The position numbers and the translations under genes are program-made. The notes under the pieces are model-generated. The model was given only the letters and a program-made list of their open reading frames with translations, was not told where the DNA came from and did not search any database. DNA of 64,000 nt from Candidatus Undinarchaeales archaeon (GTDB taxonomy: Archaea > SpSt-1190 > JASMDC01), in the NCBI GenBank assembly GCA_030753015.1, contig JASMDC010000009.1, positions 37,758 through 101,757 of the forward strand, written 5' to 3'. Below, piece by piece: positions 3,999-31,637 of this stretch (position 1 is the stretch's first letter; each line of letters opens with the position of its first letter).

Positions 3999-4060
3999 CG
4001 CTGACACTGGTGATACGACCCTCCTATGAGTGGTCCCATTTTGGTTCTGTATCGTCCCAG

Positions 4061-16557: not shown

Positions 16558-19500
16558 CTACCACACGGTTATCTCGACGCTGACGAGCTCCTCCTCGTCC
16601 TCGTTGACCTCCATGATGGCGAAACGCTTGACCAGCTCCACGTCCCGCCCCAGGGCCGGCAGGCGCACGTAGTAGTCGAGGATCTCGAGCAGCTGGATGC
16701 GGCGGATGATCACCGGGATCTCCAGTGCCTTGACCTTGCCCCCGATCGTGCACCGGTCATCGTTCTGGTCCCGCACGTAGATCTCCAGCTTGGACGTATG
16801 GGTGCTCTGGAGCCCCGGTGGGTTGAGGATGATGTTGAAGGTGACCTCCTGGAGCGCATCGAGCGTGGGTGGTGGGACGGGGTAGAGCTGTGCCCAGTGT
16901 CGAAGGGACGGGCCGGTCTTGATCGTCAGGCTCGTGAGCCCGCCGAGGTTCTTGATGCGGAGGTCGACAGAGCAGGGCGTGGCATCGATGGATACGCACT
17001 CCAGCACCGATGGATGGTACTCGAGCTTCGACTTGCCCTTCATGCGCACGAGCACCGTATTGTTAGCATGCTTCACACCGGACGCGACCGAGGCGCGCAG
17101 GGACCATGCCTTCCGCGAGTCCTCACAGCGGTCGGTGTCAGTGCCCTTGTTGTACAGCGGCTTGCAGTTCTTGTCCTTGGTGAGGTTGAAGTGACCCGTG
17201 GCGTTGGTGTTCACCTTGCAGTTGTTGGAGGACTGTACGATGTTCCCGAACTCGTCGAGCACCGAGATCTTGACCTCACTGAGCGGGAAGTTGCTCTCGC
17301 CCCAGATCTCCATGGCGGCCTGCCCGTCAATGACCTCGCCGTTCTTATGCGAAGTGATGAGGACGCGGGGCGTCTCCCCCACCGTGAAGGTGTGGAGCGC
17401 GAGGTAGGACTGGCCGTTGGGCATGACCTTGCCCTCGTTGGGATCACCTTCGGGGAACACGTCCTCGGCCCAAAGCTCGACGTGGTAGTCTCCGTAGGCC
17501 AGGGTAGTATTGATACCGAAGGAGCGCTTGAACGTACGTCCGACCTTGACGATGTTGTCCCTGTCGTACACGACAACGGGATCGTTGCCCTTGGCCTTGA
17601 GTCCGATGGAGCCCTTGCCCGGGACGACCATGGTGACGTCGGCGCCCGACCGGGTGAAGGTTATCCCCGTCCCGGAGCTATTGGCCACCGTGAGCTTGGA
17701 ATCATCACCGTTCTTGACGAACGTTACGATGTCGAGGACCTTCTCGTCGTCGTTCACCTCGAGCTTCCAGTCGTTTACGACTGTCGTGGCACCGAGGGAG
17801 ATGTCCATGAGGATATCGTCCCCGCTGCGCGTGAGGGTGGCCTTGTTCCCTGCGTGGGTTAGAGTGACGACGTTCCCGTTGACCGTGATGGGCCCCACGC
17901 CCACCCAGTCCCTTTGCTCATGCCAGTACCGCAGATACTCACGCAGCCCCCACTGGTCGTCGCTGTTGATCTCGCCCAGCTTGCCCCAACCGAAGAGAAC
18001 CCGCCGCTGGATCCATTCGACCCCGCGAAAGATGACGAGGTACCTGCGAAGGTCGAGCTCGTCCTCACCGGGCACCTCCGACCACCTGAACAGCTCAGAA
18101 CCCACGTTCAGGGAGTAGCGGATGGTATCGTTGTCCAAGTTGTCGCACCTCCAAGTGAGGTCAGGGTTGAGCTCGGTGGTGACGTTGGGAGCGATGTTAT
18201 AGGGTGTGCCGGGCGCATCGTTGGCGCACTTGAAGATGGCGTCGGTGACCGTCGAGATGCCGCCGTGCGGGTCCTCGCTGTAGAGCCGGACGAAGTAGTC
18301 CGTGTCGAAGGTGAGGGTGGACGTGATGTCATAGGATGTGCCGGTGGTCTTCTTGTCGTTGACGACGTCCGATCCGTATAGAGCGGATCCGACGAAGACG
18401 TGGTACGTGAGGGCGTCACCGTCATAGTCGAAACCCTTGGTCCATTCGATGGTGGTCGAGGTGTCATGGGTGAGCTCCGGCTTCAGGTTCGTGGGAGCGT
18501 GAGGATTGGCGTTCACGCACCCATCGATCATCACGGCATCGATGCTGCTCCAAGCCTGGTCGGCCTCGTCGCTCACGGCCTTCAGATCGATGCGGACCTT
18601 ATCGACCTTGGACTGCGTGCGCGATATGCTGGGGCTCCAGTACGGGCGCTGCTTGGTGTTGTCCTTGCAGTAATCGACGTGGTCCTTGTCCGAGAACCGT
18701 TCCCACTTGTCGTCCCCCCAGGCAGCGTCCCACACCTTGTTGGCGCTGTCGGCATACCACTTGGGATCGGTGCTATCTATGGGATGGACGGTGATGTTCG
18801 AGATGCGACCCGGCTCGTAGTCGAGCACGAGCACGATGCGGTCCAGGTACACGGGGATGGTGTAGGTGAGCTCGAGCCAATCATGGTCCTTGCGGGTCGA
18901 GGGGCGCCACTCCATGTTCGCCTTGGGATCGCAGTTTGACGGATCTGGTGGGGAGGAATCCCATTCAAGTGGTTCCCCTGAGGCCGCCGACGCCTTGTGG
19001 CTGGCCTTGTTGGTGGACGACGTGGCGCTCGCTGCCCACTGATCCGTGGTCGCCGAGCACCAAGGGACACCCTCGTACATGCAGGTGTGATCGAAGGTAA
19101 GGCCTTTTGCGTTGCGATTCGCACCGGCGTTCTTACAGTCACCCGTCTCGACCTGGTATCGTAACCGCTGGGTCTTCTCAGGCAGGTCCCACGTCTCCTT
19201 GAGGAACACCTGACCGGTCCCCGAGAGGCTCGCCCACTCGCCCGTGTGCTTGCCAAGTGTGCTCCCTCCACCGTCGTACGCGAACAGTACGAGGCGAGCA
19301 TCGTCATCAGCGCAGTCCTTGTCCGCGGGCTTTACGGTGATACCGTTGACCCACAGCTGGGCGATGGCCTGGTAGCCCTCGATGGTGGAGGGTACAGCCA
19401 CGTCCTGATGGAAGAGGTCCGCGTATATCCCGTCGGCCTTCTGCTGGACGCACTTGGAGCCATCATAGCACACAGAACCGCTCGCGGTCTGGACGACGGT

Positions 19501-19629
19501 GCCAGCGGCGCTCCAGTTGTCAGTTCCCTTCTCGAAGTCGGCGTTCTTGACGTCGTTGTTGTCGTCGCACTCGTCACCGGCCGACATAGTCAGCAGGAGC
19601 ATGAGGACGAGGACCGCGGCCCGGACCAT
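16558..19629 (-). CDS. Large secreted multidomain protein (carbohydrate-binding-like jelly roll, galactose-binding-like domain, FN3/Ig-like domains)
   Basis: Signal peptide MVRAAVLVLMLLLTMSAG, then NADFEKGTDNW, QWAASATSS...WLELTY..PV, two FN3-like repeats (PHAPTNLKP..., PGTPYNIAP...) and ITSHKNGEVI Ig-like domain. The ORF track start at 19857 overlaps the upstream gene. Confidence 0.82.
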   Translation of the reverse strand: MVRAAVLVLMLLLTMSAGDECDDNNDVKNADFEKGTDNWSAAGTVVQTASGSVCYDGSKCVQQKADGIYADLFHQDVAVPSTIEGYQAIAQLWVNGITVKPADKDCADDDARLVLFAYDGGGSTLGKHTGEWASLSGTGQVFLKETWDLPEKTQRLRYQVETGDCKNAGANRNAKGLTFDHTCMYEGVPWCSATTDQWAASATSSTNKASHKASAASGEPLEWDSSPPDPSNCDPKANMEWRPSTRKDHDWLELTYTIPVYLDRIVLVLDYEPGRISNITVHPIDSTDPKWYADSANKVWDAAWGDDKWERFSDKDHVDYCKDNTKQRPYWSPSISRTQSKVDKVRIDLKAVSDEADQAWSSIDAVMIDGCVNANPHAPTNLKPELTHDTSTTIEWTKGFDYDGDALTYHVFVGSALYGSDVVNDKKTTGTSYDITSTLTFDTDYFVRLYSEDPHGGISTVTDAIFKCANDAPGTPYNIAPNVTTELNPDLTWRCDNLDNDTIRYSLNVGSELFRWSEVPGEDELDLRRYLVIFRGVEWIQRRVLFGWGKLGEINSDDQWGLREYLRYWHEQRDWVGVGPITVNGNVVTLTHAGNKATLTRSGDDILMDISLGATTVVNDWKLEVNDDEKVLDIVTFVKNGDDSKLTVANSSGTGITFTRSGADVTMVVPGKGSIGLKAKGNDPVVVYDRDNIVKVGRTFKRSFGINTTLAYGDYHVELWAEDVFPEGDPNEGKVMPNGQSYLALHTFTVGETPRVLITSHKNGEVIDGQAAMEIWGESNFPLSEVKISVLDEFGNIVQSSNNCKVNTNATGHFNLTKDKNCKPLYNKGTDTDRCEDSRKAWSLRASVASGVKHANNTVLVRMKGKSKLEYHPSVLECVSIDATPCSVDLRIKNLGGLTSLTIKTGPSLRHWAQLYPVPPPTLDALQEVTFNIILNPPGLQSTHTSKLEIYVRDQNDDRCTIGGKVKALEIPVIIRRIQLLEILDYYVRLPALGRDVELVKRFAIMEVNEDEEELVSVEITVW

Positions 19630-19675
19630 CTCCTTGGCGTGTCGCCCGTTCCTATTTCCTCGTCGTCCCACGGGC

Positions 19676-22600
19676 TCAACCCTCACGTCCGTTCGCGGTG
19701 ACGGTGCGCCGGCGCGTCCTCCGTGCCAGGAACAGACCTGCCAGGGCGAGCAGGAGCGCGACATCCACCGCGCCCACGCCGGGAGCTGTTGCCATGAAGG
19801 CACTACCGCTGGCGTACACGACACGCACGTAGAACTTCTTCTCGTTGAGTCGCTCAAGCGAGTCCGCGTCCACGACGTAGATCTCGATGAGACCTGCAGA
19901 GGTGAGCTTGTAGGGATTGATCTCCACCGGTATGGTCTTCGACTCGCCGGGGAAGAGGGTGAACGCCTCTTCCTTGAAGGTGGACCACATCTCCTCCTTG
20001 TGGAGCTTGAGCACGAGGTTCATAGGCTGGGTCCAGTAGTTCGTGACGTGGGCTCCGAGGAGGAACGTCTCACCTACGAAGGTCGACATGGTGTTCTCGA
20101 CGACATCGGCCTTCCCGGACATCTTACGCACCTCCAGCTTGACGAACTTCTCGAAGGAGAACACCGTCTGGTAGTGGGCGTCGGTGTAGAGCATGCAGAT
20201 GCCCGTCTCAGGTGCTGGCGTGCCCTCATACTCGCACTGGTCCGGCGCTGCCTCCTGGGTGCAGAAGTGGCACATGGGCAGGGTGGCGGTGATTGTCATC
20301 ACCGGTCGCGGTTCGTTGGTGACCAGACCGGAGACGTCGCACAGGAACACGCCGGAGCCCTGATGAGTACAGGTCTTCTCGATGTTCTTGTAGGAGAGGG
20401 TTGCCTGGCACATATTGCACCGCTCCGGCGCGCCGCCGTGTTGCTGGAGGTAGGATGACACGACCACGTGGAAGGCGATCTTGACGTCCTTCTTACCGCC
20501 GGGCAGCGTCTGCTTGCGCACCTTGATGTCCTTGACCGAGATGGCGGGGATGGGGCCGTCCCTGGGGTGGCACAGCTCGCGCTCGTAGCCGAGAGTTGAG
20601 GATAGCACCTGACACCCGGTCTTGGAACAGGTGTAGTATCCACCGTCGATGTAGTCGATCTGACCCTCGGTCTCGTTGAAGAGGGCTTTCTCGTGGTAGT
20701 AGCAGTTGAGGGTCGTGACATTCACGGTACCGGGGTACGGGCAGTTGCCTTTGAACACGTCATCGGACCAGTCGAATCCGTCGTAGGCGTCATCCCCGTC
20801 GTCCTTGCAGATGTCCCCGTACTTCTTCTCGTCCTTGTCGAAGGCGTGGTAGCATGTGTGGGTGGCGTTGTCCAGGCACCAGCCCTCGGTGGCGACGTCG
20901 ATGCTGATTGGCTTCTTGTTCTTCAGCTCCTGGTTGAGGCGGAAGCGCGAGTTGTCTGCGGCGTTCGCCTTGTCGAGCTCGAGCCAGGTGCACCGCTGGC
21001 GGTGGCTGGCGTCCTGCGGTTCCACGGGCGCCTGGTGGCAGCCCTGGGAGTCGCAGTCGGTGGCCTTGGACCAGTCAGATCCGGTCTCCGAGTCCTTATC
21101 GTCCCAGAAGTAGCAGGTGAGCTGGTAGTTCTGCTTGTTGCTGACGAGGTTGTAGATATGGCCGACGATCTCCACGTCACCCGCGCCGTCGCAGTCCCTG
21201 GTCTCCTGGCTGTCCACACCGAAGAAGTCGTTGTAGTTCGTCGAATCGATACCATTGTAGAGCTTGTTGTCCACTTGGCTCGTCTTGTTGACACCCTTCT
21301 CGCAGTAGTGGCAGTAGTCACGGCTGTCCGAGTAGTAGTAGAAGTTATCGTTATCCCCGTCGTCACCACAGCACGGTGCCTCGGCGTTTGTACCCGCTTC
21401 GTCGTGGAGGCCGCCGTCGCCGATGTCGGGGTGGTCGTCGGGCTCGAACCAGGCGTGTTTGTTGTACTTGTCCACATCATAGCTGCGGGCACGCCAGGAC
21501 AGGCAGTGGCACGCATTGGCGCTGACGTCGCCGCCCTTCTTGCCGCCGGTCTCTGTCGAGTCGTAGCAGGTACCGTTGGACACGCAGTCCATCTCCCGCG
21601 GGCAGCAGGCGAGGTAGTAGTTGTACGTCTTACCGCTGGCGAAGTTGGGCGCGTCCGAATCCTGCCATGAGCGCACACCTATGTTGTCGGCCGGCACGCG
21701 GTGGAGCGAGCCTGTGCCCGTCCCCTCCGAGCGCAGGGACCACTCGCTGCTGTCGTCACCGCAACATGCGCCCTTTGAGTCCGAACCGCCGTTGTTGACC
21801 GAGGTGCCGTACTTGACGTCCCACCAGAGGCCTTGGTCCTTGTTCTGGCTGCCGGTCGAGGTGTCGGAGAAGCATCGGGTATCGCAGTACCTCCAGGCGA
21901 TGGACGCATCATCGGCCTTGCTCTGGCCGGCCACATCCCGGTTATTGTTGTTGAGGTTGTCGTAGTCGACGTAATACATCTGAGAGTATGCCTTCTCGTT
22001 GGAGTTGGGGAGTCCCGTCGGATCGTCGCTCGTCGGCGTGTCGTCGAAGTAGCGGTTGCGGTTGCTCTTGCCGGAGTAGCTCGAACCGCCCATGGCACGG
22101 TTCTCGCCGTAGTACTGCCACAGCATCTTGTACTGATAGCTCCCCTCCTGGGTGCACATCTCGAGCGGGTCGGTGGTGCGCTTGATTGGATCGTGGTTGG
22201 TGGGTGTCGTCGTGATGGTGTTCACTGATATCTTGTTGTCCGAGGTGCCATCGTTGAGCACGTAGGTGAAGGTGTAGCTGCACGTCTCCTTGCCGTACTC
22301 GCTCGTGCCGATGCGCCAGGTTGTGGGACCTCCACCCTCGTTGACGCAGGTCATGGCAATGTCCTTACGGTACTCGATCCCGTCTGGCTTCTTGAACGAG
22401 TAGGTGCCGTCCGTGTCGTAGCCGCAGTAGTAGTAGCTCTGGCATGTACCGGTGCGGCAGCCTTTGCGGTCGCCGGTCTTCTGGTCGTCGCAGGAGTTGG
22501 GGCAGTTGGAGATCTTGCTGGCCCCGATTTCGACGGCGTTGTTGTCACAGCAGTAGGTGTTCACGGGCGTCTTGCCGGGAATCGAATACTGGAACTTGAC

Positions 22601-25600
22601 ATAACCGTAGTACCAGCTGCTGACGGTGCAGGCTGTGAACTCCTTCGAACAGTGGGCATAACACCAGTCGGAGTCGGACGTGCCACTGGCGCGGGAGTAG
22701 AAGTCACACTCGATCTGTTTCATGTTGTCGTTATACCTGCATGTCGTCTTCTTGTTCTTGTACGTGGCACCGCACTTCAACTCCCCGCAGTTCAGGGATA
22801 CCTTGGGGCTGCTGGCGTCGCCGTTGTAGAGCTGCTCGTCCTGATCCCAGAGGAAGAGGAAGGGGGCGACGGAGGCTATATCGACCCACTCGCCAGCCCG
22901 GCAGAACTCCTTCGGATTGTCGTTGTCCACGTTCGCGAGGTACTCGTGGTGGTAGCACTTGTTATTGTACACACAGTCCGTGGCCGTCGGACAGCACGCG
23001 ATGTCGTCCGCGGACGCGTCGCATGCGTTGTCGGTCTCGGTCTCGTCGCTGTGACACTTCAGGTAGAACTCGTTGGCATCGTCGCCGCAGCACGTATCAG
23101 CGCTCGCTGTCGATCCACCGTCGTTAAGGGCGATCTTGTACCACGATCCGTCGTTCTTCTTGGTCTTCGTGCCTCCGCCGAGGTTCCAGCCGACGCCCTG
23201 GTCGTTCGCATGCACCGTTGTGTCGTCGAAACAGGTGGCCGAGCAGTAGCGGTCGGCGTCAACTGTCGCGGAGGCGTAGGTGCCGGGATCGCCCGGTGGT
23301 GCCTTGTTGACATTGCCGTGGTTATCGAAGTTGACCTTGTAGATGGTCGTCCAGTCGTACTCCTCAACAGTTGTCTTTGAGCTCGCACCGCCACACTCGC
23401 CATTGAAGTAGAACTTGGATTTAGCTTCGTACGTGCCCTCGCGCTCGCAGTGAGCTCGCTCGAGGTCCTTCCACTCCATCTTGCATTTATCGGAAAGAAT
23501 CTCATTGTTGCCCTGGCAGCTGGACTTGGGGCAGGTCAACACCTTCCATCCGCCAGAGAGGTCGACCTTCGAGTCCTTGTGGCGTATCTTGTAGTACCCC
23601 GGCGAGCACCAGTAAGCGTTGATAGGCCCTTGCCACTCCGGGGTAACGATAGGTAGGTCGTCGCAGGTCTTCCCATTGAAGATAAACTCCGACTTCACAG
23701 TGTACCGTCCCGCGATCTTGCACGAACCATAGCTCCACGTGGGACAGTCATTGGTAGTGATCTTCATGACCCTGTTCCCGCTACCGTCCTCCTGGCAGAA
23801 CTTGTTCGCACCCTTACCGGGGCAGTCGAGGATTCCGGAGTTGGCCTCCTCGGTGCCGACACCGTTGTAGATGCGGTGGCGGATCTGGACCGGAGGTTTG
23901 GACGCCCAACATCTGAAGATCTTGTTGTTCTTGAACGTCTCCGCCGTGGTGCGGAAGGCCGTCTGTTTGCAGTTCTTGCCGTTGTAGGTGAAGTCGACCT
24001 GGGCCCGGTACCAACCGTCCTCGGTGCACGTGTCGGGGAAGGAGAACGTCTCACACGTCTCTACGCGTGCCTCGCCGCTGCACGAGGTCAGGCAGCTTGC
24101 GGTCTTGTCGAACACGACCTTGTTGCTGGGCGAGTAGATACGGATGCGGGCATTGTCCCGGCGCAGCTTCCACACGCCGTTCTCGCACAATTCATTATAT
24201 CCGTCGCCGTCGGCGTCCAGGTCGTACCCGTTGTCGAAGCACTTCCCGTTGCTGACACAGTCGTAGCGTGACGAACAGCATGCCTTGTTGTCGCTGTGGC
24301 GACAGGCCGATGGGGTCGCTGACTTCTCATCATCGCTGGTCTCGCACGTGCGGTACCACTCGTTGTTGTCATCACCGCAGCATGAAGAGGAAGCGGTCTC
24401 CCCACCAAGGTTCCAGGCGATACCGTTGTCGTGGGCGCCCGTGGTCTTGTCGCCGAAACAGGTGAGCGAACAGAAGATGCCGCTATGGGCGTCCCAGTTC
24501 ACGTTGTACTTGACTTCGTCGATGTCCTGGTACGTGGCCGCCAGCGCCCTCCCGTCCCAGTTCTTTCCCGAATAGGACATCCGGCTCACGAAGTGCATGT
24601 CCCCCTCGTAGTCGCAGCGTTTGTTCATGCTACTATGGGTGATATAGGGCGAGGGGTCCCAGGTGTACGAGCACGGGATCACGAGCGATTTGTGCGTGGG
24701 ATCGTGGGAGAACTGGTCGGCTGTGTCGGTACAGGACATGTCCTTCCAGTTGAGGAGCGTCGTACCACCGACATAGATCTTGATCTTGGCAGTGGTGTCG
24801 AGAGCGCACGAGAACACCTTCATCTTGCTGTCCTCGACCCAGCTGCTCGTGTGGGGGAGGGCTGCTCCGTTGACGCACGAGTTGCCCTTGTGGGTGACCT
24901 TGGCGCGGACGGTGTAGTACCCGTTGGTCTGCGAGCAGATCGCCTTCTCCGGGACGGTGTACGTCTCGCAGTCCGACATGTAGGTCCCCCCGTCGCACGA
25001 CGTGTCGCACTTCTTCTTGGGGCTGGTGTGAGCGAGATTTCCGTTGGGATGGTAGACGTAGTAGTAGACCTCGTCATCGATGTCACAGAAGTAGAGGTTC
25101 GTCTTGCTCAGTCTCGATTTCACGTTCGATGTGGGGCGGTTCTGGCATTCGGGCCGGTTATGCAGTATGTCCACCTCGGCCTGGTAGTAGCCTGGGATCT
25201 TGCACTCGCTAAAGTCCATCGTGCACTCGTGGTATGTCTGCGCCTCATTGCCAGTGCCCGAGGGGCAGCTGGTGGCACAAGTGACGTCGTAGGACTTGAT
25301 CTGGCCAGCGGTGTAATGGAAGATGCGGTACTTGGCCTTCTCGGGCAGATCCTGCCATACGCCGTTGACGCACTTCTCCTCGGCGTTATCGCCATCGATG
25401 TCACCGATGTGGTTGTTGTTGTAGCAGTTACCGAAAGCCACACAGTCGTACTGGGCGTTGCAGCATGCACTGTTGTCACCCTTACAGGCGTTCTTTACCA
25501 GCTCGTCGGTCTCGCACTTGCGGTACCATTCACTGCCATCGTCACCGCAACAGGTGGTCGATGCGGTCTCGCCTCCGATGCTCCAGGCGATGCCGAAGTC

Positions 25601-28147
25601 GTGGGCACCGGTCGTCTTGTCATTGAAACAAGTGGGCGCAGAGCAGTAGGTACCGGAGTGGCCGTCCCAGTTGACGTTGTACGCCGTGATTTGCAGGTCC
25701 TGTGAGGCGTCCTCGAGGGCCGTGCCGTCCCAGTTCTTGCCGCCGTAGTGGACACGGACCTTTATCTTGTGGTCGCCCTCACGGTCGCACTGGTGCTTGT
25801 TCCCACTGACGGTGACATAGTGGCCGGCAGTGGGCGACCATCCGGAGTAGCTGCACGCGACGACTGCGCTGTTGTCAGTGGGATCGTGTGAGAACTGGTT
25901 AGCAGGACAGTCGATCCACGCACCGTTGACATAGTAATGGCCGCCGACCCAGTACCACATCTGCATGGTCGTGTCAAGGCCGCAGGAGAACACCTTCTTC
26001 TTGCTGTCATCTACCCAGCTGCTCGTGAATCGGAGGGCGTTACCATCGGTCACGCACGAGCTGCCTGAGTGGGTGACCTTGGCACGGACACTGTAGAAAC
26101 CGTTCTGCGTGCAGAGGCCGGCCTCGTCAATGGTGTAGCTTTCGCAGTTGGACATGTACGTGCCGCCGTCGCAGGAGATCGTGCAGCTCTTCTCGGCGCT
26201 GGTATGGGCGGCGGCCCCGTTGGGGTGGTAGACGTAGTAGGTCACCTTGTCGCCGATGTCCTTCCACGCTCCGCTATCACAAATCTCTTGGTCGTTATCG
26301 GTGTCGCTGTCCCCGGTCCAGCCATGGGCATAGCATTTGTTGTGGGCGACACAATCGGTCTGGTGGGAGCAGCAAGCACTGTTGTCGCCATCGCATGACT
26401 TCGGGTTCACCTTCTCGTCGGTCTCGCACTTGCGGTACCATTCGCTGCCATCGTCGCCGCAGCAGGACGAAGCGGCCTTTTCCCCGCCGATGTTCCAGGC
26501 GACGCCGAAGTCGTGGTTGCCGGTGGTCTTGTCGCTGAAGCAGGTGGGTGCCGAGCAGTAGACGCCCCCCTCGCCGTCCCAGTTGACATTGAACTTCTTC
26601 TCGGTCAACGTCTCCTTGCGGTGCGAGGCCGGCGAGTGCAGGCTCGTACCGTCCCAGTTCTTCCCCGAGAACGAGAACTCCACCTTCGTGTAGTAATCAC
26701 CCTCGATGCGACAGTAGCGCTTCTGGCTGCTCACGGTCACGAACTGGCCCGCGGGTGGCGTGTAACCGGCGTAGGTGCATTCGTGGAGCCCCGCATCGTC
26801 TTTACCCGGATTGGTAGCGTAGGCTTTGGGGCAGTCCATCGCCTGGCCGTTGACGAAATAGGTGCCGCCCACATAGTACCAGACCTTGCCGGTGGCCGAT
26901 AAGGAGCAGGAGAACAGCTTTTGGTTCGCTTCGTTCACCCAGCTTGTGCCGATATTGAGGGGCTTGCCGTCCGAACAGGAGTTGCCCTTGTGATCGATGC
27001 GGGTGTTCATCGAGTAGTAGCCGCCGTCCTTTGTGCACAGTGCAGTTCTGTCAATGGTGGCCGCGGGGCAGTCGGAGATATACTCCTTCGCAGAGTTGCA
27101 ATTAGCGGGACAGTCAATGTCCTTCTTCCATACATACTGGCTGCTGGACGTGGATGGCGAGTTGACCCCGGGCTTGTATATGTAATACGTGCCCTTGTCA
27201 GTGATTTCGCATGTGAACAGGTCGTGCCTGCCGATATTGCTCTTCCCACCGATGCTTCCACCGGTCTTGCCATCGCACTCTAAATCCCCATGGGTGACGG
27301 AGGCCTCAGCCTGGTACTGACCGGGGATCTTGCATCCCGCTTTGGAGTAGGTGTAGGTGCAGGCCGACTCACGCTGACAGTTCGCGGAGGTGCATGGGCA
27401 TGTTGTCGTGCACTCGATATTGCTCTTGGTAGTGACGAGCCCCCCCGTCTTGTGATAGATCTTGACCTCGCCGAACTCGGGGCACTCATAGAGCTTCTTT
27501 GTGAAGGAGCTGGTCGCTCCCTGGGAGGTCTTGCCATCGCATTCGTTAGCGCCGTGCTTCACTTTCACCTTGGCCTCGACCCATCCTGGAGCGTTGCACG
27601 AGTCGTAGGTATGGGAGCACTCGGCGTAGCGCTGGGAATTGGCTCCCGTACCGGATGGGCACGAAGCCGTGCATTCAACGTTGACGGTCTTCATATGGCC
27701 CCCGAGGCCGTTGTAGTACTTGATCTCGGCAATATCATTACAGGTGTAGAGGTCGAAGTACGAGGACGTGGCCGAACCGCCGCCGGTGGTCTTGCCATCG
27801 CACTCCTTGTTCCCGTAGCTGAATGTGGCTTTCGCCTTCACCGGGCCGGGGGTCGTACATGTCCGGGAGTAGCTGACGGTGCACTCGCAGACCTGCTGTG
27901 CATTGGCACCTGTGCCGCCGGGGCAGGAGCATGAGCAGCCACCGGTGTTCTTGGTATCGATGTGGTTGTTCTGCCAGTCGTAGATCTTGATCGTGGCACT
28001 CTCTGAGATGGCCGTCTGGACCGCTAGAAGCACGAGAACGCCTGTGAGGAGCAGGAGGGTGGCGAGGGAGGCAGCGGCGCGCGTAGAGCGAGAACTAACT
28101 CTAGAAAAGCCTCCTCGCTCTATTGATGACTGAATAGGATGAACCAA
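19676..28147 (-). CDS. Giant (2823 aa) Cys-rich repetitive cell-surface protein with C-terminal membrane anchor
   Basis: N-terminal hydrophobic signal, repeated ~85-100-aa Cys modules, six CCGDD motifs, a C-terminal Ig-like domain, then APGVG + TM + RRTRRR. GGGAGA RBS before the TTG start. Confidence 0.9.
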   Translation of the reverse strand: MVHPIQSSIERGGFSRVSSRSTRAAASLATLLLLTGVLVLLAVQTAISESATIKIYDWQNNHIDTKNTGGCSCSCPGGTGANAQQVCECTVSYSRTCTTPGPVKAKATFSYGNKECDGKTTGGGSATSSYFDLYTCNDIAEIKYYNGLGGHMKTVNVECTASCPSGTGANSQRYAECSHTYDSCNAPGWVEAKVKVKHGANECDGKTSQGATSSFTKKLYECPEFGEVKIYHKTGGLVTTKSNIECTTTCPCTSANCQRESACTYTYSKAGCKIPGQYQAEASVTHGDLECDGKTGGSIGGKSNIGRHDLFTCEITDKGTYYIYKPGVNSPSTSSSQYVWKKDIDCPANCNSAKEYISDCPAATIDRTALCTKDGGYYSMNTRIDHKGNSCSDGKPLNIGTSWVNEANQKLFSCSLSATGKVWYYVGGTYFVNGQAMDCPKAYATNPGKDDAGLHECTYAGYTPPAGQFVTVSSQKRYCRIEGDYYTKVEFSFSGKNWDGTSLHSPASHRKETLTEKKFNVNWDGEGGVYCSAPTCFSDKTTGNHDFGVAWNIGGEKAASSCCGDDGSEWYRKCETDEKVNPKSCDGDNSACCSHQTDCVAHNKCYAHGWTGDSDTDNDQEICDSGAWKDIGDKVTYYVYHPNGAAAHTSAEKSCTISCDGGTYMSNCESYTIDEAGLCTQNGFYSVRAKVTHSGSSCVTDGNALRFTSSWVDDSKKKVFSCGLDTTMQMWYWVGGHYYVNGAWIDCPANQFSHDPTDNSAVVACSYSGWSPTAGHYVTVSGNKHQCDREGDHKIKVRVHYGGKNWDGTALEDASQDLQITAYNVNWDGHSGTYCSAPTCFNDKTTGAHDFGIAWSIGGETASTTCCGDDGSEWYRKCETDELVKNACKGDNSACCNAQYDCVAFGNCYNNNHIGDIDGDNAEEKCVNGVWQDLPEKAKYRIFHYTAGQIKSYDVTCATSCPSGTGNEAQTYHECTMDFSECKIPGYYQAEVDILHNRPECQNRPTSNVKSRLSKTNLYFCDIDDEVYYYVYHPNGNLAHTSPKKKCDTSCDGGTYMSDCETYTVPEKAICSQTNGYYTVRAKVTHKGNSCVNGAALPHTSSWVEDSKMKVFSCALDTTAKIKIYVGGTTLLNWKDMSCTDTADQFSHDPTHKSLVIPCSYTWDPSPYITHSSMNKRCDYEGDMHFVSRMSYSGKNWDGRALAATYQDIDEVKYNVNWDAHSGIFCSLTCFGDKTTGAHDNGIAWNLGGETASSSCCGDDNNEWYRTCETSDDEKSATPSACRHSDNKACCSSRYDCVSNGKCFDNGYDLDADGDGYNELCENGVWKLRRDNARIRIYSPSNKVVFDKTASCLTSCSGEARVETCETFSFPDTCTEDGWYRAQVDFTYNGKNCKQTAFRTTAETFKNNKIFRCWASKPPVQIRHRIYNGVGTEEANSGILDCPGKGANKFCQEDGSGNRVMKITTNDCPTWSYGSCKIAGRYTVKSEFIFNGKTCDDLPIVTPEWQGPINAYWCSPGYYKIRHKDSKVDLSGGWKVLTCPKSSCQGNNEILSDKCKMEWKDLERAHCEREGTYEAKSKFYFNGECGGASSKTTVEEYDWTTIYKVNFDNHGNVNKAPPGDPGTYASATVDADRYCSATCFDDTTVHANDQGVGWNLGGGTKTKKNDGSWYKIALNDGGSTASADTCCGDDANEFYLKCHSDETETDNACDASADDIACCPTATDCVYNNKCYHHEYLANVDNDNPKEFCRAGEWVDIASVAPFLFLWDQDEQLYNGDASSPKVSLNCGELKCGATYKNKKTTCRYNDNMKQIECDFYSRASGTSDSDWCYAHCSKEFTACTVSSWYYGYVKFQYSIPGKTPVNTYCCDNNAVEIGASKISNCPNSCDDQKTGDRKGCRTGTCQSYYYCGYDTDGTYSFKKPDGIEYRKDIAMTCVNEGGGPTTWRIGTSEYGKETCSYTFTYVLNDGTSDNKISVNTITTTPTNHDPIKRTTDPLEMCTQEGSYQYKMLWQYYGENRAMGGSSYSGKSNRNRYFDDTPTSDDPTGLPNSNEKAYSQMYYVDYDNLNNNNRDVAGQSKADDASIAWRYCDTRCFSDTSTGSQNKDQGLWWDVKYGTSVNNGGSDSKGACCGDDSSEWSLRSEGTGTGSLHRVPADNIGVRSWQDSDAPNFASGKTYNYYLACCPREMDCVSNGTCYDSTETGGKKGGDVSANACHCLSWRARSYDVDKYNKHAWFEPDDHPDIGDGGLHDEAGTNAEAPCCGDDGDNDNFYYYSDSRDYCHYCEKGVNKTSQVDNKLYNGIDSTNYNDFFGVDSQETRDCDGAGDVEIVGHIYNLVSNKQNYQLTCYFWDDKDSETGSDWSKATDCDSQGCHQAPVEPQDASHRQRCTWLELDKANAADNSRFRLNQELKNKKPISIDVATEGWCLDNATHTCYHAFDKDEKKYGDICKDDGDDAYDGFDWSDDVFKGNCPYPGTVNVTTLNCYYHEKALFNETEGQIDYIDGGYYTCSKTGCQVLSSTLGYERELCHPRDGPIPAISVKDIKVRKQTLPGGKKDVKIAFHVVVSSYLQQHGGAPERCNMCQATLSYKNIEKTCTHQGSGVFLCDVSGLVTNEPRPVMTITATLPMCHFCTQEAAPDQCEYEGTPAPETGICMLYTDAHYQTVFSFEKFVKLEVRKMSGKADVVENTMSTFVGETFLLGAHVTNYWTQPMNLVLKLHKEEMWSTFKEEAFTLFPGESKTIPVEINPYKLTSAGLIEIYVVDADSLERLNEKKFYVRVVYASGSAFMATAPGVGAVDVALLLALAGLFLARRTRRRTVTANGREG

Positions 28148-28279
28148 GTCATCTCCCTTCCAATGCCTCTTCTTTCCTGTCGTTCCTCACTCTATAACGT
28201 CTGTTATGACCACCTCCGATGGTAAATAACAGCTACTACTGACTATACTATACTAGTCCGCGATGCGATATAAACCTTT

Positions 28280-29191
28280 TTACCCGGGCACGATGCGGAC
28301 AGTGAGCATCTTACCCTCGACGATCACGTCCATGCGCTTGAGGGAGGACACACCCGAGCGGGGGAGGGCGATGCGGAGCAGGTAGGTCCCGGGAGAGATG
28401 CAGGTCGCGGGCTCGAAGGTCAGCCTCCCGTCGAGATCGGTGGAGGTGACCGTCTTCGCAAGCGGCTCGGCATCCAGTCGAGGGAGGATCGAAAGCTCGA
28501 CCTCGGTGTTAGTCAGGCGTAGTGCCGGCGCCTCGGTGAATCCCTCCACGAAGTACGTACCGTGTAGCGTGGCGGAGAGCACGATGCGGGTGCAGCACAC
28601 GTCCTCGTGCTCCTCGTCATCATCGGTGTCGATCCATGCGCCGTTGTCCGCACCTGTGCACTCCGTCTTGCACGAACCGCCCACGCAGTGGAAGGACGGG
28701 GAGCAGTCCGAGCCCGTCCGACACGTACGCCGACATTCCCCGGCATCGCACCCGAACGGCGAACAGTCCTGGACGGCCACCGCCGCACCAGCACGGCACC
28801 GCGAGCCATCATCATCGGTGGCACATGAGTACCCGACAGCGTAGCGCTCGTGCCCATGGCAGAGCGTGTAGTCCAAGGAGCGGCAGTCCACCCACGTTCC
28901 CGCGCAGGTGTTCGCTTGTGCCACGAGCTCGTACAACCAGGGACCCATGCACATGTCGTGGTAGTCGTACCGTATGCAGAAATCCTGGTAGCTACCCTGG
29001 TGGTCGGTGCAGAATCCGCCCTGGAGGAGGTCGAATCCGTCGGAGTCCTCGCTGTCGGTGCGACACTGGTCAGCGATCTCCTCGAAGGCGGCGAAGGCGT
29101 TCCCTCCCGAGAACAACCCGCTTGTCGGTGCACCGAGGGCGAGGGCCAAGCACAGGAGGGCGACGGCCGCGACCAGGTACATTCGCGGCAT
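28280..29191 (-). CDS. Secreted Cys-rich protein
   Basis: Signal peptide MPRMYLVAAVALLCLALALGA, CRTDSED..G, CSPFGC...C..GSDCSPSFHCVGGSC, Ig-like C-terminus; TTTATA box at ~29219-29224. Confidence 0.8.
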   Translation of the reverse strand: MPRMYLVAAVALLCLALALGAPTSGLFSGGNAFAAFEEIADQCRTDSEDSDGFDLLQGGFCTDHQGSYQDFCIRYDYHDMCMGPWLYELVAQANTCAGTWVDCRSLDYTLCHGHERYAVGYSCATDDDGSRCRAGAAVAVQDCSPFGCDAGECRRTCRTGSDCSPSFHCVGGSCKTECTGADNGAWIDTDDDEEHEDVCCTRIVLSATLHGTYFVEGFTEAPALRLTNTEVELSILPRLDAEPLAKTVTSTDLDGRLTFEPATCISPGTYLLRIALPRSGVSSLKRMDVIVEGKMLTVRIVPG

Positions 29192-29244
29192 GATACTATG
29201 TACGTGGCGCTTGTGGGCTATAAATGTGCCCCGTGGACGGGGCC

Positions 29245-29826
29245 TCAATCATCCGGCTCGGATACATCGAGGTAGACGTAGAACGTGCGCGTCTGGAAGG
29301 CCTTCGTCTCTCCGAGCGCTGTCCAGTTCACGTCCGCATAGAGCCGTTCGAGATGAAACTGGAATGTCATCTGTACGTCGTCCAAGGCATCGTCGCTGCC
29401 CTTCTCCTTCACGATGATCACCCGGGAGGAGTTGAGGGGGATCTCTAGGTGGGCTTTCACCACGGTGTCCTCCACATCGTACGTCGAGGTGAGGTGCACA
29501 GGGTACCGGTAGTTCGTCCCATCGGCCTTCCAGTCCGAGACGTACCGCACCTGGCCTTCCCAGTCTACTGCCTCCGTCTTCAGGGAGGCCTGGAAGAGGA
29601 TGTCAAGTGCTCGCATGTTACGCTCGCGGGAGAAGTCGTCGGAGAGCGTGTCCACCGTGTCCACGGCCGATAGGAGGTTCTCGAACTCGTTGAGCTGGCC
29701 TATGGAGATATCGCCCATGGGCACATGCCGCTGGGTGATGTACATACCGATCATGTGGAGGGACATGATCACGAGCACGCTTGAGACGATGAAGAACTGG
29801 CCTTTGCGGTGTGTAGTGAGCATCAT
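29245..29826 (-). CDS. Class III signal-peptide (pilin-like) protein with DUF2341-like C-terminal domain
   Basis: HRKG|QFFIVSSVLVIMSL prepilin-type cleavage motif; W..YRYPVHL...TFYVYLD. Confidence 0.75.
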   Translation of the reverse strand: MMLTTHRKGQFFIVSSVLVIMSLHMIGMYITQRHVPMGDISIGQLNEFENLLSAVDTVDTLSDDFSRERNMRALDILFQASLKTEAVDWEGQVRYVSDWKADGTNYRYPVHLTSTYDVEDTVVKAHLEIPLNSSRVIIVKEKGSDDALDDVQMTFQFHLERLYADVNWTALGETKAFQTRTFYVYLDVSEPDD

Positions 29827-30389
29827 CAGTGTCGACCTCTCAAGTGGAGCGCATCGGTAGAGAACTCCGCATAGAAATTATAGCCGTTCTGTTCGATGGG
29901 GAAGGTCTGGACGTGATGGGTGGAGGCGTTGAGCGTGATGGTCATGCCGTCAGAGGGGGTCCCGTAATCAAGGAGGGTGATGTTCCCGCTGTTCAGGACC
30001 GTGCGTAGCTGATTGAAGCTCGGTGTCTCGACGAGGATGTGGAACCTGGTCGTGGACGGGTCCCGCAGGATCTGGACGGGGGCGTGGACGGCGCCCGTGA
30101 TCTTCCCCCAGCTCTGGACGGTGCCCTTGACACGGAGACACTCGCCCGCTGGCATGCTCGCATCGAAGGACTGCCACGACTCGACCTTGATGTGTATAAG
30201 CTGGTTCGGCTTCACGGGAATAACCCACTCAGATGGATCTCCCAGAGAGTACCACGAGAGTTCTTCCCCGGTGTCCAGGTAAGTGACATTGACGTACTTG
30301 AGCTTGTAGAATCCCTGGTTCGCTCCGCCGCCGCTGTTGAGCAGGAGCACCAGCGCTGCCAGGACCACAAGGGCGAGAGCGGATCTCAT
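29826..30389 (-). CDS. Hypothetical secreted/membrane-anchored protein
   Basis: N-terminal hydrophobic helix; start and stop overlap both neighbours (translational coupling). Confidence 0.75.
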   Translation of the reverse strand: MRSALALVVLAALVLLLNSGGGANQGFYKLKYVNVTYLDTGEELSWYSLGDPSEWVIPVKPNQLIHIKVESWQSFDASMPAGECLRVKGTVQSWGKITGAVHAPVQILRDPSTTRFHILVETPSFNQLRTVLNSGNITLLDYGTPSDGMTITLNASTHHVQTFPIEQNGYNFYAEFSTDALHLRGRH

Positions 30390-31084
30390 AGCCCCTCACC
30401 TCTCGTCGTCGTGTTGAAGTAGATATAGAAGCGCTGGGGCTGGAACGGCTTGAGCTGGGAGACTGTCCATGTGAAGTTGACCTTCCATGAGCTCTCGGGG
30501 ACGCACTCAGCATGAGGCAACATGCTGTTCTCGGCAACGATACCCGATTTGAGGGTGCAGATGACCTTGTACTCGACAGTGTCACCCTGGGGGACGTCCG
30601 TACCCATCTCCACCATCCATATTTCGGTCGCGAAGTCGGTCGTCAGTGGGAGGGGGATCACCTCATAGACCTGCACCTCGTCCATCGGATAGTTTGCAAC
30701 GACCTCCACTGGGATGCGGTAGGTGAGAGTATTAGTCGCGGGGACCAGGTTCCAGGAGGTGGCCGTGGTATAGGTGATCTCCCCGTTCCAGGAGAACCCG
30801 AGCTCGTTCGCCGTACGTTGCATGAAGAACACATAATCGTTGAGGTTCTGTGTCATGATGTCCGAGCACACGCTGTCCCTGGCCGACGCCTGGGTGCACG
30901 ATGCATCGACGATCTTGGATCCCTGCTGACGGCTGTTCTGGAAGAAGAGGAGGGGCATCAGGGAGAAGTCGTCGCGATTGAGGGGGCGGTGCTCCCTGAT
31001 CATCGACTCCATGACCAGGAGGGCCATGAGGATCGTGATGCAGGAGATGACGTAGAACTGGCCGCGCTCCGACCGGACCGACAT
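30386..31084 (-). CDS. Class III signal-peptide (pilin-like) protein, paralogue of 29245-29826
   Basis: GGAGGTG RBS; SERG|QFYVISCITILMALLVME; W.GEITY, YRIPVEV, RFYIYFN. Confidence 0.75.
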   Translation of the reverse strand: MSVRSERGQFYVISCITILMALLVMESMIREHRPLNRDDFSLMPLLFFQNSRQQGSKIVDASCTQASARDSVCSDIMTQNLNDYVFFMQRTANELGFSWNGEITYTTATSWNLVPATNTLTYRIPVEVVANYPMDEVQVYEVIPLPLTTDFATEIWMVEMGTDVPQGDTVEYKVICTLKSGIVAENSMLPHAECVPESSWKVNFTWTVSQLKPFQPQRFYIYFNTTTRGEGL

Positions 31085-31151
31085 ACACCTCCCACTACCC
31101 ATTGGAGATATCTAGGTCGTGGAGGTATTAAATCCTTTCGCGTGCGGGACC

Positions 31152-31637
31152 TCAAACGGACTCGGTGCGTGTGCACACGCTCGACTCGGTACGCTCGATC
31201 ATGGGTGTCACGGCGAGGTCGATGATATCGTTGTAATCGGCGAACTGTGTTCCCGAGATAGCGAAGATCCGGGTGCTCCCCCCCGCCCATCCTTCGACCG
31301 TCTGTTCGATGAGGAAATCACATTTGTTCCCTGTCACGACCAGGGTCTCGTTAGCGATCCATGATCCCGCGTTGTACTCGAACATAGCTCTCTCGAGCAC
31401 CCGGTGCGGTATCCGGTTCTGCCCTTTGTTGGTGATGGCAAGACATACTGCGCCGGGAAGGGTTCCGCACCTGGCGGTGACGTTGTCCGGGCAGGCATAG
31501 ACCACCCTGCAGCCTAACCTGTAACGAATGTACGCCGAATCACCTGCGGAGGAAGCGTAGACGTGGAGCACGGCCACTATCAGACCTGTGAACACGGCGA
31601 TGGCCACGACCACCATTGCAAGCGTTCGATCGGCCAT
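31152..31637 (-). CDS. Hypothetical membrane-anchored protein (possible pilin-associated)
   Basis: N-terminal TM followed by a small beta-rich domain with LAITNKG; GGAGGG RBS; TTTTTAAG box upstream. Confidence 0.68.
   Translation of the reverse strand: MADRTLAMVVVAIAVFTGLIVAVLHVYASSAGDSAYIRYRLGCRVVYACPDNVTARCGTLPGAVCLAITNKGQNRIPHRVLERAMFEYNAGSWIANETLVVTGNKCDFLIEQTVEGWAGGSTRIFAISGTQFADYNDIIDLAVTPMIERTESSVCTRTESV

Follow-up and report, generated by a model that had tools for sequence, protein, structure and literature searches.

The leading candidates for mediating surface or partner contact in uncultured archaea of the DPANN type are type IV filament subunits and giant adhesins, almost none of which have been characterized. 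In the bacterial type IVa minor-pilin/PilY1 priming and tip complex, pilin-like proteins are encoded together with a large Sec-exported non-pilin that is presumed to be adhesive. In the Sulfolobus bindosome, sugar-binding proteins use class III signals as a non-pilus device for surface anchoring. For Methanococcus maripaludis, the available text on the Epd pili describes minor pilin genes that are unlinked to the pilus motor as normal, and pilin-like proteins of 200-299 aa as occurring in pairs (PMC3875500). Additionally, the available sections of a study of Undinarchaeota report putative adhesion proteins with LamG or immunoglobulin domains (Dombrowski et al. 2020, PMC7414124).

Here we describe seven genes (g1 to g7) in a 64-kb window, the whole stretch of DNA that was analyzed, from a marine archaeon that is a relative of the tiny-celled Undinarchaeota. 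Its genome is 3.85 Mb (99% complete) as compared with ~0.66 Mb in Undinarchaeota, and the organism is contained in seawater metagenomes of 11 studies and in one hydrothermal-vent study. The genome encodes a great many giant surface proteins, one being an 1868-aa FG-GAP protein at the start of the window. The seven genes constitute a real, lineage-restricted surface locus that probably serves adhesion. The explanation that we favor, while giving it somewhat less than an even chance, is a composite cell-surface (adhesion) locus composed of two adjacent co-oriented modules, one pilin-like (g2-g4) and one based on a giant protein (g5-g7).

Gene content, conservation and transcription of the locus

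The original prediction placed seven co-oriented ORFs on the minus strand between 16558 and 31637 and took all of them to be exported. All seven are present at these coordinates, and each of g1 to g7 has one N-terminal hydrophobic segment, with a second such segment in g6 only:

31152..31637, minus strand: g1, 161 aa, a single N-terminal hydrophobic segment MADRTLAMVVVAIAVF...VYA followed by SS, a Sec-type signal or signal anchor
30386..31084, minus strand: g2, 232 aa, pilin-like, class III signal MSVRSERG, then the predicted cleavage, then QFYVISCITILMALLV
29826..30389, minus strand: g3, 187 aa, Sec-signal secreted protein between g2 and g4
29245..29826, minus strand: g4, 193 aa, paralogue of g2, class III signal MMLTTHRKG, then the predicted cleavage, then QFFIVSSVLVIM
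28280..29191, minus strand: g5, 303 aa, Sec signal, 6.9% Cys, with homology to the last ~300 residues of a 5262-aa giant paralogue
19676..28147, minus strand: g6, 2823 aa, N-terminal signal, 168 Cys (6.0%)
16558..19629, minus strand: g7, 1023 aa, Sec signal, 46 nt after the g6 stop

The likeliest start of g2, as corrected, is ATG 31084 behind GGGAGGTG, that of g5 is probably ATG 29191, and the corrected start of g7 is ATG 19629 behind AAGGAG, with no overlap with g6. Pfam and NCBIfam thresholds were reached by 0/7 locus proteins, with g1 giving no match at all in either collection, and a PDB sequence comparison with two of the locus queries found nothing. Homology to PilY1 or to FimU/PilVWX was rejected for g2 to g7, there being no such match of any kind in Pfam or NCBIfam.

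The locus is fully syntenic in a congeneric genome, at 80-96% identity. Co-conservation of all seven genes across relatives, which had been anticipated, is confined to the genus: the entire cluster is kept in only 2/17 genomes of the phylum, and outside of the genus the g2-g3 pair alone recurs, in a distant lineage. Given the synteny in the congeneric genome and a class III motif in every relative found, the pattern is, on these comparisons, not attributable to chance.

TATA-like elements precede g1, g2 and g6, as read by eye against a consensus, and suggest several transcription units, apparently three or more. Two of these elements are:

31126..31138, minus strand: TATA/BRE-like element AAAGGATTTAATA between g1 and g2, candidate promoter for g2-g3-g4(-g5)
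28267..28279, minus strand: TATA/BRE-like element AAAGGTTTATATC immediately behind the g5 stop codon, candidate promoter for g6

No TATA-like element was seen between g6 and g7. The proposal that the genes are expressed jointly agrees with RNA-library contigs from two studies (2/2 runs), which cover g4, g5 and g6 and not the flanks, though this support is at the contig level only and DNA carry-over is possible. The flanks that are absent from these contigs are present in two DNA runs. One contig (29483-29802) lies inside g4, another (29001-29343) spans the g4/g5 junction, and a third (27964-28232) is located just downstream of the element at 28267..28279.

The pilin-like genes and the filament machinery

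Both g2 and g4 conform to the class III pattern of a short basic leader, Gly or Ala at position -1 and ~20 hydrophobic residues. Their signals prove to be genuine and conserved, and a pilin-like identity of both proteins has good support; the cleavage motif [KR][GA]|QF[FY] is found in 16/16 family members (g2, g4, the G001 orthologue of g2, P0003-P0008, P0037-P0039 and four family-f3 ORFs) that span widely different GC content, with position -1 being G (13) or A (3), +1 always Q and +2 always F. The neighboring g1 was ruled out as a canonical class III protein, as it has Thr at the position that requires G/A. The predicted paralogy of g2 and g4 is borne out by a full-length alignment at 22-26% identity, as is their coupling around the secreted g3, where the g2 stop and g3 start share 4 nt (ATGA) and the g3 stop shares 1 nt with the g4 start. 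On L042, a distant metagenome contig of higher AT content, a g2 homologue is followed by a g3 homologue with the same ATGA overlap. Among 1.84 billion representatives there are only 5 full-length relatives of g2 and g4, which makes the comparative support thin; the independent g2 relative P0037 is also 232 aa. No further copies of g2, g3 or g4 were found in the host genome.

This conservation bears on a reading in which g2 and g4 are uncleaved signal-anchor proteins and the locus is simply a series of exported proteins with no relation to each other, in a genome where surface proteins are abundant. Giant surface proteins such as the 1868-aa FG-GAP protein do abound in this genome, and the gene functions are all predicted from sequence. 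However, invariant G/A at -1, Q at +1 and F at +2 in 16 GC-diverse sequences are hard to explain without processing, and the conserved g2-g3 translational coupling and a fusion of g5 to a giant protein argue in the same direction, which leaves this reading very improbable.

An AF2 model of g2 contains a helix at 3-31, two further helices and a C-terminal, jelly-roll-like beta-sandwich at 121-225 (pLDDT 70-85), with a moderate overall confidence (mean pLDDT 61.7) and fold matches that are all below significance. At 190-230 aa and with the extra two-helix insert, g2 and g4 differ from typical major pilins, while the short f3 relatives (~130 aa) resemble ordinary small pilins. Pilin families in Pfam gave no match to g2 or g4, the only hit at E <= 0.1 being a chance-level one to WIF. 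For example, Pilin_N/DUF1628, which we take to be the N-terminal domain family of haloarchaeal PilA-type pilins, had no Pfam match for g1, g2 or g4; the family linked to Epd-type pilins is presumably Class_IIIsignal (DUF361). Assignment of g2 and g4 as Epd-type QxSxE pilins was rejected since the +1 Gln is present but +5 is Ile in g2 and Val in g4, again with no Pfam match. As in the EppA-processed, type IV-like Epd pili, so far as the available text describes them, the leader is short and Gly-ended, +1 is Gln and several pilin-like genes are at a distance from the motor (PMC3875500). In contrast to Epd pilins, there is no +5 Glu, no Pfam pilin match and no wider family than the five representatives in 1.84 billion proteins; the g2 model has a helical insert plus a beta-sandwich, and a Sec-type partner, g3, is situated between the two paralogues.

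As originally noted, genes for the filament machinery are absent from the window: TFF ATPases, platform proteins and A24 peptidases have all of their genome matches outside of C117:37758-101757, and within these 64 kb g2 and g4 have no ATPase or platform gene linked to them. On the same contig, the closest genes of the A24 peptidase and TadC-like types are ~31-38 kb upstream of the locus. The ATPase and platform genes sought elsewhere in the genome were found, with 6 T2SSE matches (5 over the cut-off) and 7 T2SSF matches. Prepilin peptidase, whose absence from the genome had been named as evidence against the prediction, is represented by 4 Peptidase_A24 matches, two of them with the archaeal Arc_PepC domain. 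On contig C63, two RGQ pilin-like genes with a G|Q site immediately precede an ATPase gene and two platform genes, and C60 and C73 have Epd-type RGQ(A/S)xEF N-termini with no adjacent platform gene. At no fewer than 12 places in the genome, a ~600-aa RGQ-signal protein is also paired with an adjacent ~900-aa secreted protein, indicating that class III signals are widely used on large surface proteins in this organism.

Such pairs favor the idea that the class III signal of g2 and g4 is an anchoring device only, and that these are surface-displayed binding proteins rather than filament subunits. Like Sulfolobus bindosome substrates, g2 and g4 have a class III signal, are larger than pilins, with a helical insert and jelly-roll-like beta domain, and are not adjacent to motor genes. 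Unlike those substrates they have no substrate-binding-protein domain, nor any similarity to a binding-protein family in Pfam or NCBIfam, and their short f3 relatives are like ordinary small pilins. We regard an anchoring role alone as decidedly improbable.

In the composite locus that we favor, the first module would be g2-g3-g4, perhaps with g1. The g2 and g4 products would be synthesized as preproteins whose short basic leader is cut at G|Q by an archaeal prepilin peptidase of the A24 type, the gene for which lies elsewhere, and the hydrophobic N-terminal helix would keep them in the membrane or permit their entry into a type IV filament. As low-abundance, minor-pilin-like subunits they may, together with the Sec-exported g3, prime or cap a filament that one of the ATPase/platform sets located elsewhere in the genome builds.

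The giant protein, the CCGDD module and their neighbors

A 2823-aa repeat protein with a membrane anchor had been predicted, and g6 fits this description. It is composed of tandem ~90-aa Cys modules and ~300-aa super-repeats, with six CCGDD motifs (residues 562, 866, 1256, 1686, 2128 and 2259), only 5 N-glycosylation sequons and a C-terminal hydrophobic segment:

25313..25735, minus strand: an example of the CCGDD module in g6, at residues 805-945, W-N-x-GGE...CCGDD...ACC...DCV...CY...C-x-x-G-x-W, the stretch that was folded
19721..19801, minus strand: g6 C-terminal membrane anchor, residues 2783-2809, then an RRTRRR tail

The tail, ...APGVGAVDVALLLALAGLFLARRTRRR, is similar to that of a PGF-CTERM/archaeosortase A substrate, but this assignment was rejected as there was no NCBIfam match at E <= 1. 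A search of the genome for an archaeosortase returned only an exosortase-family protein at 35.6 bits versus an ArtA cut-off of 75 bits.

CCGDD is an undescribed, disulfide-rich module that is widespread in DPANN surface proteins, and its presence in g6 agrees with the prediction that the giant is a surface protein. CCGDD modules occur in 23 large proteins from public data, six of which have archaeal source names (Woese-, Diaphero-, Nano- or Altiarchaeota), and two weak matches bear bacterial labels. Several of these proteins also have peptidase C1, subtilase S8, NosD, LamG or Ig-like domains. Within Undinarchaeota the modules are found in 9/17 genomes, and in 7/10 small-genome family-f4 genomes. 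Six small-genome loci with CCGDD giants were fetched, and in 3/3 loci with both flanks visible the giant adjoins an A24 peptidase gene. Like other giant surface proteins of Undinarchaeota and DPANN archaea, those described here are large, secreted and multi-domain with a proposed attachment role, and come from the same phylum (PMC7414124); unlike here, the available sections of that study mention neither a CCGDD module nor a link to pilin-like genes (PMC7414124).

With its Sec signal and 6.9% Cys, g5 is the Cys-rich secreted protein that was expected. The 5262-aa giant paralogue carries a g5-like C-terminus in both genomes of the genus, which we interpret as gene fission or fusion and which indicates that g5 and the giant belong together. 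The description of the large proteins as Cys-rich holds for g6 (6.0%) and not for g7, which has only 1.8% Cys. The predicted length of g7 (~1020 aa) is correct, while its FN3/carbohydrate-binding-like label draws only on Pfam matches below the gathering score, namely fn3 (PF00041; E 0.015, 16.0 bits versus 25) and CBM_4_9 (PF02018; E 0.032, 15.0 bits versus 25.9); a chitinase A1 FN3 domain also matched weakly (E 0.029).

The pilin-like proteins and giants had been predicted to form a single apparatus, in which g2/g4 and g3 would build a short stalk or tip complex, rooted in the membrane, for carrying, anchoring or exporting g5, g6 and g7. As in the PilY1 tip complex, pilin-like genes are paired here with large Sec-exported non-pilin genes, and the tight co-orientation is kept in the genus. 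The RNA-library contig that spans g4 and g5 also fits, as do the A24 peptidase genes beside CCGDD giants in the 3 small Undinarchaeota genomes and the location of the second, 5262-aa giant, which in both genomes lies in convergent orientation to an ATPase / 726-aa / 951-aa / 640-aa class III cassette. However, no g2/g3/g4-like gene is among the neighbors of this second giant and there are no other copies in the genome, which speaks against the prediction. Unlike in the PilY1 complex, the giant has a membrane anchor of its own, there are only two pilin-like genes, and no sequence or fold relation exists. Furthermore, the distant g2-g3 pair of L042 is followed by an unrelated convergent gene with no giant within the 1.6 kb visible, and TATA-like elements separate g1, g2 and g6. 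We consider a single apparatus unlikely.

For the composite locus, the second module would be g5-g6-g7. The Sec pathway would export g6 and its C-terminal helix would retain it in the membrane, from which it may project a disulfide-rich chain of ~2700 residues made of CCGDD and related modules. The g5 protein would be an accessory domain that has split off, and g7 a secreted beta-rich protein that is co-transcribed.

Implications for the family and the organism

The locus offers a clean and very narrow family of pilin-like proteins whose secreted partner is conserved, as well as the undescribed CCGDD module, and the natural fission or fusion of g5 and the giant tells which parts belong together. 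Since the organism is in seawater metagenomes and the genes are in metatranscriptome libraries, the putative G|Q cleavage, surface display and g2-g3 binding are directly testable in existing samples. A role in host contact is speculative given a 3.85-Mb, 99%-complete genome, and we regard it as doubtful. A broader reading, which we think quite unlikely, is that g2/g4 and g3 make up a membrane stalk of the pilin type by which giant CCGDD proteins are held or presented, with the locus being the large-genome form of a DPANN-wide "pilin-anchored giant adhesin" apparatus. If this were true, finding it in a relative of the 0.6-Mb Undinarchaeota that has a 3.85-Mb genome and is probably free-living would imply that the apparatus is older than genome reduction, and that it did not originate as a host-contact device.

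Organization and transcription of the locus

The boundaries originally predicted for the locus are correct, as seven minus-strand ORFs (g1 to g7 in transcription order) occupy window positions 16558-31637 with other genes on either side. These are an unrelated DUF362/ferredoxin gene upstream in the same orientation and, downstream, a convergent gene for a 765-aa multi-pass membrane protein.

Genes of the locus (window positions; starts are predicted)
g1: start 31637, minus strand; exported protein; Shine-Dalgarno-like motif
g2: start 31084, minus strand; class III signal protein, 232 aa, same size as its independent relative P0037; Shine-Dalgarno-like motif
g3: start 30389, minus strand; Sec-type partner of g2 and g4; Shine-Dalgarno-like motif
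g4: start 29826, minus strand; class III signal protein; Shine-Dalgarno-like motif
g5: ATG at 29191 chosen, minus strand; Cys-rich secreted protein, 303 aa; no Shine-Dalgarno-like motif
g6: 19676-28147, start TTG at 28147, minus strand; Cys-rich giant, 2823 aa; Shine-Dalgarno-like motif
g7: start 19629, minus strand; secreted protein, 1023 aa; Shine-Dalgarno-like motif

Every one of these proteins has a single N-terminal hydrophobic segment, and g6 has an additional C-terminal one followed by RRTRRR. Stop and start codons overlap twice, by 4 nt between g2 and g3 and by 1 nt between g3 and g4. None of the seven proteins has a Pfam or NCBIfam match that passes the threshold, and an Rfam search of the window returned 0 matches. 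The locus is real and not a chance pattern. Elsewhere in the window there is an IS66-family transposase gene (4413-5924, ~10 kb from the locus) and, at 3-4007, a gene that overruns the window start (on to position 36158 of the contig, C117) and encodes a secreted protein of 1868 aa with FG-GAP repeats and a Cys-rich C-terminus.

Elements of the AAAGG-TTTATAT type, read by eye and presumably reflecting a promoter consensus, precede g1, g2 and g6, pointing to three or more transcription units: g1, g2-g3-g4 (with or without g5) and g6-g7. Contigs from two metatranscriptome libraries of two studies cover parts of g6, g5 and g4 at identities of at least 99%. For example, one contig (27964-28232) contains the g6 start plus 85 nt upstream, and another (29001-29343) bridges the g4/g5 junction. 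The same libraries have no contig on g1-g3 and at most a trace on g7 and the flanks, although this does not show those genes to be silent. In two DNA runs, 30 and 29 of the 30 bins are covered. This contig-level evidence hints that the locus transcripts are real.

Our preferred reading, itself tentative, is that the locus comprises two adjacent surface modules. One would be a minor-pilin-like trio served by machinery encoded elsewhere in the genome, and the other a membrane-anchored giant adhesin with an accessory that would have split off from it. The alternative, one integrated apparatus of pilin-like proteins and giants, we consider less likely. It draws on the RNA-library contig that joins g4 to g5 and on the synteny of the locus, which is co-oriented in its entirety in the congeneric genome G001 at 80-96% identity, but the elements before g1, g2 and g6 point away from a single unit. 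Across the phylum, g3 and full-length g2/g4 are each found in 2 of 17 genomes.

A narrow family of class III signal proteins

The class III signals ascribed to g2 and g4 are borne out. Both proteins, which are paralogues along their full length, have a basic leader of 8-9 residues ending in Gly; QF[FY][IV][IV]S and a stretch of ~20 hydrophobic residues follow. The residues of the predicted cleavage site are kept across 16 family sequences, with G (13) or A (3) at -1, Q at +1 and F at +2. According to PMC3875500, the Epd pilins of M. maripaludis have in common with g2/g4 the Gly-ended leader and the +1 Gln, whereas their +5 Glu is absent from g2/g4. Judged from sequence, g2 and g4 belong to an undescribed family of class III signal proteins that would be cleaved and assembled into filaments.

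This family is extremely narrow. A collection of 5.8 billion sequences yielded 6 members among 54 candidates, and a profile search of all 1.84 billion representatives gave 6 matches, of which 5 are genuine (P0003, P0008, P0037, P0038 and P0039). The sixth, P0040 (1673 aa, with eukaryote-like WAP/SEA-type repeats), was taken as a chance match. P0038 and P0039 are K/N/I-rich proteins with 37-41% identity to g2 that keep the sites HRG/QFYIISCITII and RRA/QFYIISCITII (slash, cleavage site). Additionally, all four genomes of another Undinarchaeota family, f3 (G003-G006, loci L045-L048), have a ~130-aa ORF starting [KR][GA]/QFF[IV] that is preceded by a 410-480-aa ORF, and one such ORF aligns with g4 over residues 1-77 (E 2.6e-6). 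These ~130-aa proteins are g2/g4 relatives with a Cys-rich tail, and neither member of the pair matches Pfam.

From a 10-row alignment, AF2 modeled g2 at a mean pLDDT of 61.7, with an N-terminal helix (3-31), helices 37-61 and 70-94, and a beta-sandwich (121-225) at pLDDT 70-85. A Foldseek search of PDB had no match at E <= 0.001, and a wide VIA-align search, which hardly probed the beta domain, gave helical matches only (Z < 8, residues 1-97). A resemblance of the g2/g4 beta domain to DUF2341 was set aside, as there is no Pfam match. In ESM Atlas the clusters nearest to g4 are unnamed DPANN hypotheticals (0.89-0.91), and DUF7261 marks 18% of one cluster at 0.82; both are no more than leads. 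For g3, ESM Atlas gave no usable match.

A 1585-bp metagenome contig (L042) carries the P0039 gene and, overlapping it by the same ATGA, a gene for a 195-aa Sec-signal homologue of g3 (22% identity, E 6e-10 in a pairwise test). The presence of this pair on such a distant contig indicates that g2-g3 is the old unit, with g4 having arisen later by duplication. Beyond the g3 homologue lies an unrelated gene in convergent orientation, and the lack of a giant near the pair within this short contig weighs against an integrated apparatus. Complex prediction for g2 36-232 and g4 33-193, with g3 24-187 as the partner, scored 0.00 in both uncontrolled runs, which speaks neither for nor against binding.

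Cys-rich giants and their neighbors

The g6 giant has 168 Cys (6.0%) and is built of tandem ~90-aa modules and ~300-aa super-repeats with six CCGDD motifs. N-glycosylation sequons are strongly depleted in this protein: its 2823 residues hold 5 NxS/T, where 1000 shuffled versions have 28.1 +/- 4.8 and never fewer than 13. A PGF-CTERM identity for its C-terminus was rejected, there being no NCBIfam match. Of 4036 candidates, 5 are proteins like g6 of comparable length, and these belong without exception to close relatives or to the genome itself. P0013, a 55% identical giant, and P0005, a g4-like protein, may share one 38,502-bp contig, judging from the equal size of their contigs only.

The CCGDD module reaches further than g6 itself, as its profile, scored against 8000 proteins, recovered 23 longer ones. 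Archaeal source names (Woese-, Diaphero-, Nano- or Altiarchaeota) are attached to six of these, Woesearchaeota being the label of two proteins with the module, two weak matches bear bacterial labels, and several also contain peptidase C1, subtilase S8, NosD, LamG or Ig-like domains. Within the phylum the module is present in 9/17 genomes (families f1 2/2, f4 7/10, f3 0/4, f2 0/1). Ten columns of the module are invariant, seven of them Cys, from which a disulfide-knotted beta fold is predicted. The profile has 0 matches to PDB sequences, and the top Foldseek rows for a module model (pLDDT 65.5) are vWC, VWF and mucin Cys-rich modules, none of them significant (E 0.28-0.6). Full-length conservation of g7 is limited to the genus; its FN3-like stretch (residues ~360-480) matches repeats in two other genomes, and against PDB sequences g7 reaches only E 0.029-0.048.

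A second giant of the genus is one 5262-aa ORF in G001 and is divided by assembly breaks (contigs C32, C4, C86 and C26) in G000, the genome of the window. In both genomes g5 is homologous to the C-terminal ~300 residues of this protein, so that fission or fusion connects g5 with the giant; no functional tie within the locus is stronger. At C73:20245-21477, G000 encodes a 410-aa protein that has a signal and a C-terminal anchor of its own and shares 50% identity with the final ~350 residues of g6, which makes the anchor-proximal part of g6 a separate module.

The neighborhoods of the giants bear on the integrated apparatus in both directions. Six f4 loci with CCGDD giants were fetched, and in the three with both flanks visible (L069, L070 and L071, from G008:C2, G011:C7 and G007:C21) a giant of 1712-2625 aa adjoins a gene for a prepilin peptidase of family A24, in the company of genes for small TM proteins and of 4-5 radical SAM genes, of which one encodes a SPASM domain; the other three loci, with one flank visible each, had no such gene flagged there. 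The radical SAM neighbors may mean that a Cys-rich surface protein is modified after translation. In both genomes, the second giant is convergent to a cassette of ATPase, 726-aa, ~950-aa and 640-aa RGQ-signal protein genes. Against this, g6 has a membrane anchor to itself, no g2-g4-like gene neighbors the second giant, and there are no other copies of g2-g4 in the genome.

Pilus machinery and lineage

As originally noted, no ATPase, TadC-like platform or prepilin peptidase is encoded in the window. All matches lie elsewhere in the genome, where each of the three was found: 4 Peptidase_A24 matches, two carrying the archaeal Arc_PepC domain, 6 T2SSE (ATPase) matches, 5 of them above cut-off, and 7 T2SSF (platform) matches. 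On C63, two G/Q pilin-like genes immediately precede an ATPase gene and two platform genes, and canonical Epd-type RGQ(A/S)xEF N-termini occur on C60 and C73. Upstream of the window, at C117:21271-23697, a CetZ tubulin-like gene is immediately followed by one for a weakly TadC/ArlJ-like membrane protein, with A24 peptidase and presenilin-type signal-peptide peptidase genes a few kb away. The genome also carries a large family of paralogous two-gene cassettes, in which the gene for a ~900-aa secreted protein precedes one for a ~600-aa protein with an N-terminal RGQ plus hydrophobic (class III-like) signal; tblastn located the two queries in 15 and 16 places, with at least 12 adjacent pairs. One copy (C117:31614-36142) is just upstream of the window start, adjoining the FG-GAP giant, and one pair on C26 comes after a TFF ATPase and a 726-aa protein. 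Pfam matches of the cassette proteins are limited to weak CarboxypepD_reg ones.

The genome (3.85 Mb, 117 contigs, completeness 98.9%, contamination 5.0%) has a GC of about 0.60-0.62 on the contigs checked, and genes of archaeal character (CetZ, a CPxCG zinc finger, weak ArlJ/UpsF-like matches). The Undinarchaeota compared form one class of 17 species, in which the window's family contributes 2 genomes of 3.6-3.85 Mb and ~61% GC and the 15 other members have 0.6-1.2 Mb. Published Undinarchaeota MAGs average 0.66 Mbp, with 38-43% GC in the table rows seen of PMC7414124. This lineage is either a large-genome, possibly free-living sister of the DPANN phylum or else misplaced, and the host contact proposed for the locus is unsupported for a genome of 3.85 Mb. 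Contigs with the locus come from seawater/marine metagenomes of 11 studies and one hydrothermal-vent metagenome. Literature searches with full text sampled yielded no paper on this lineage, a CCGDD module or pilin-plus-giant clusters. The locus is of a known kind, type IV pilin-like proteins together with large surface adhesins; its component families are all undescribed.
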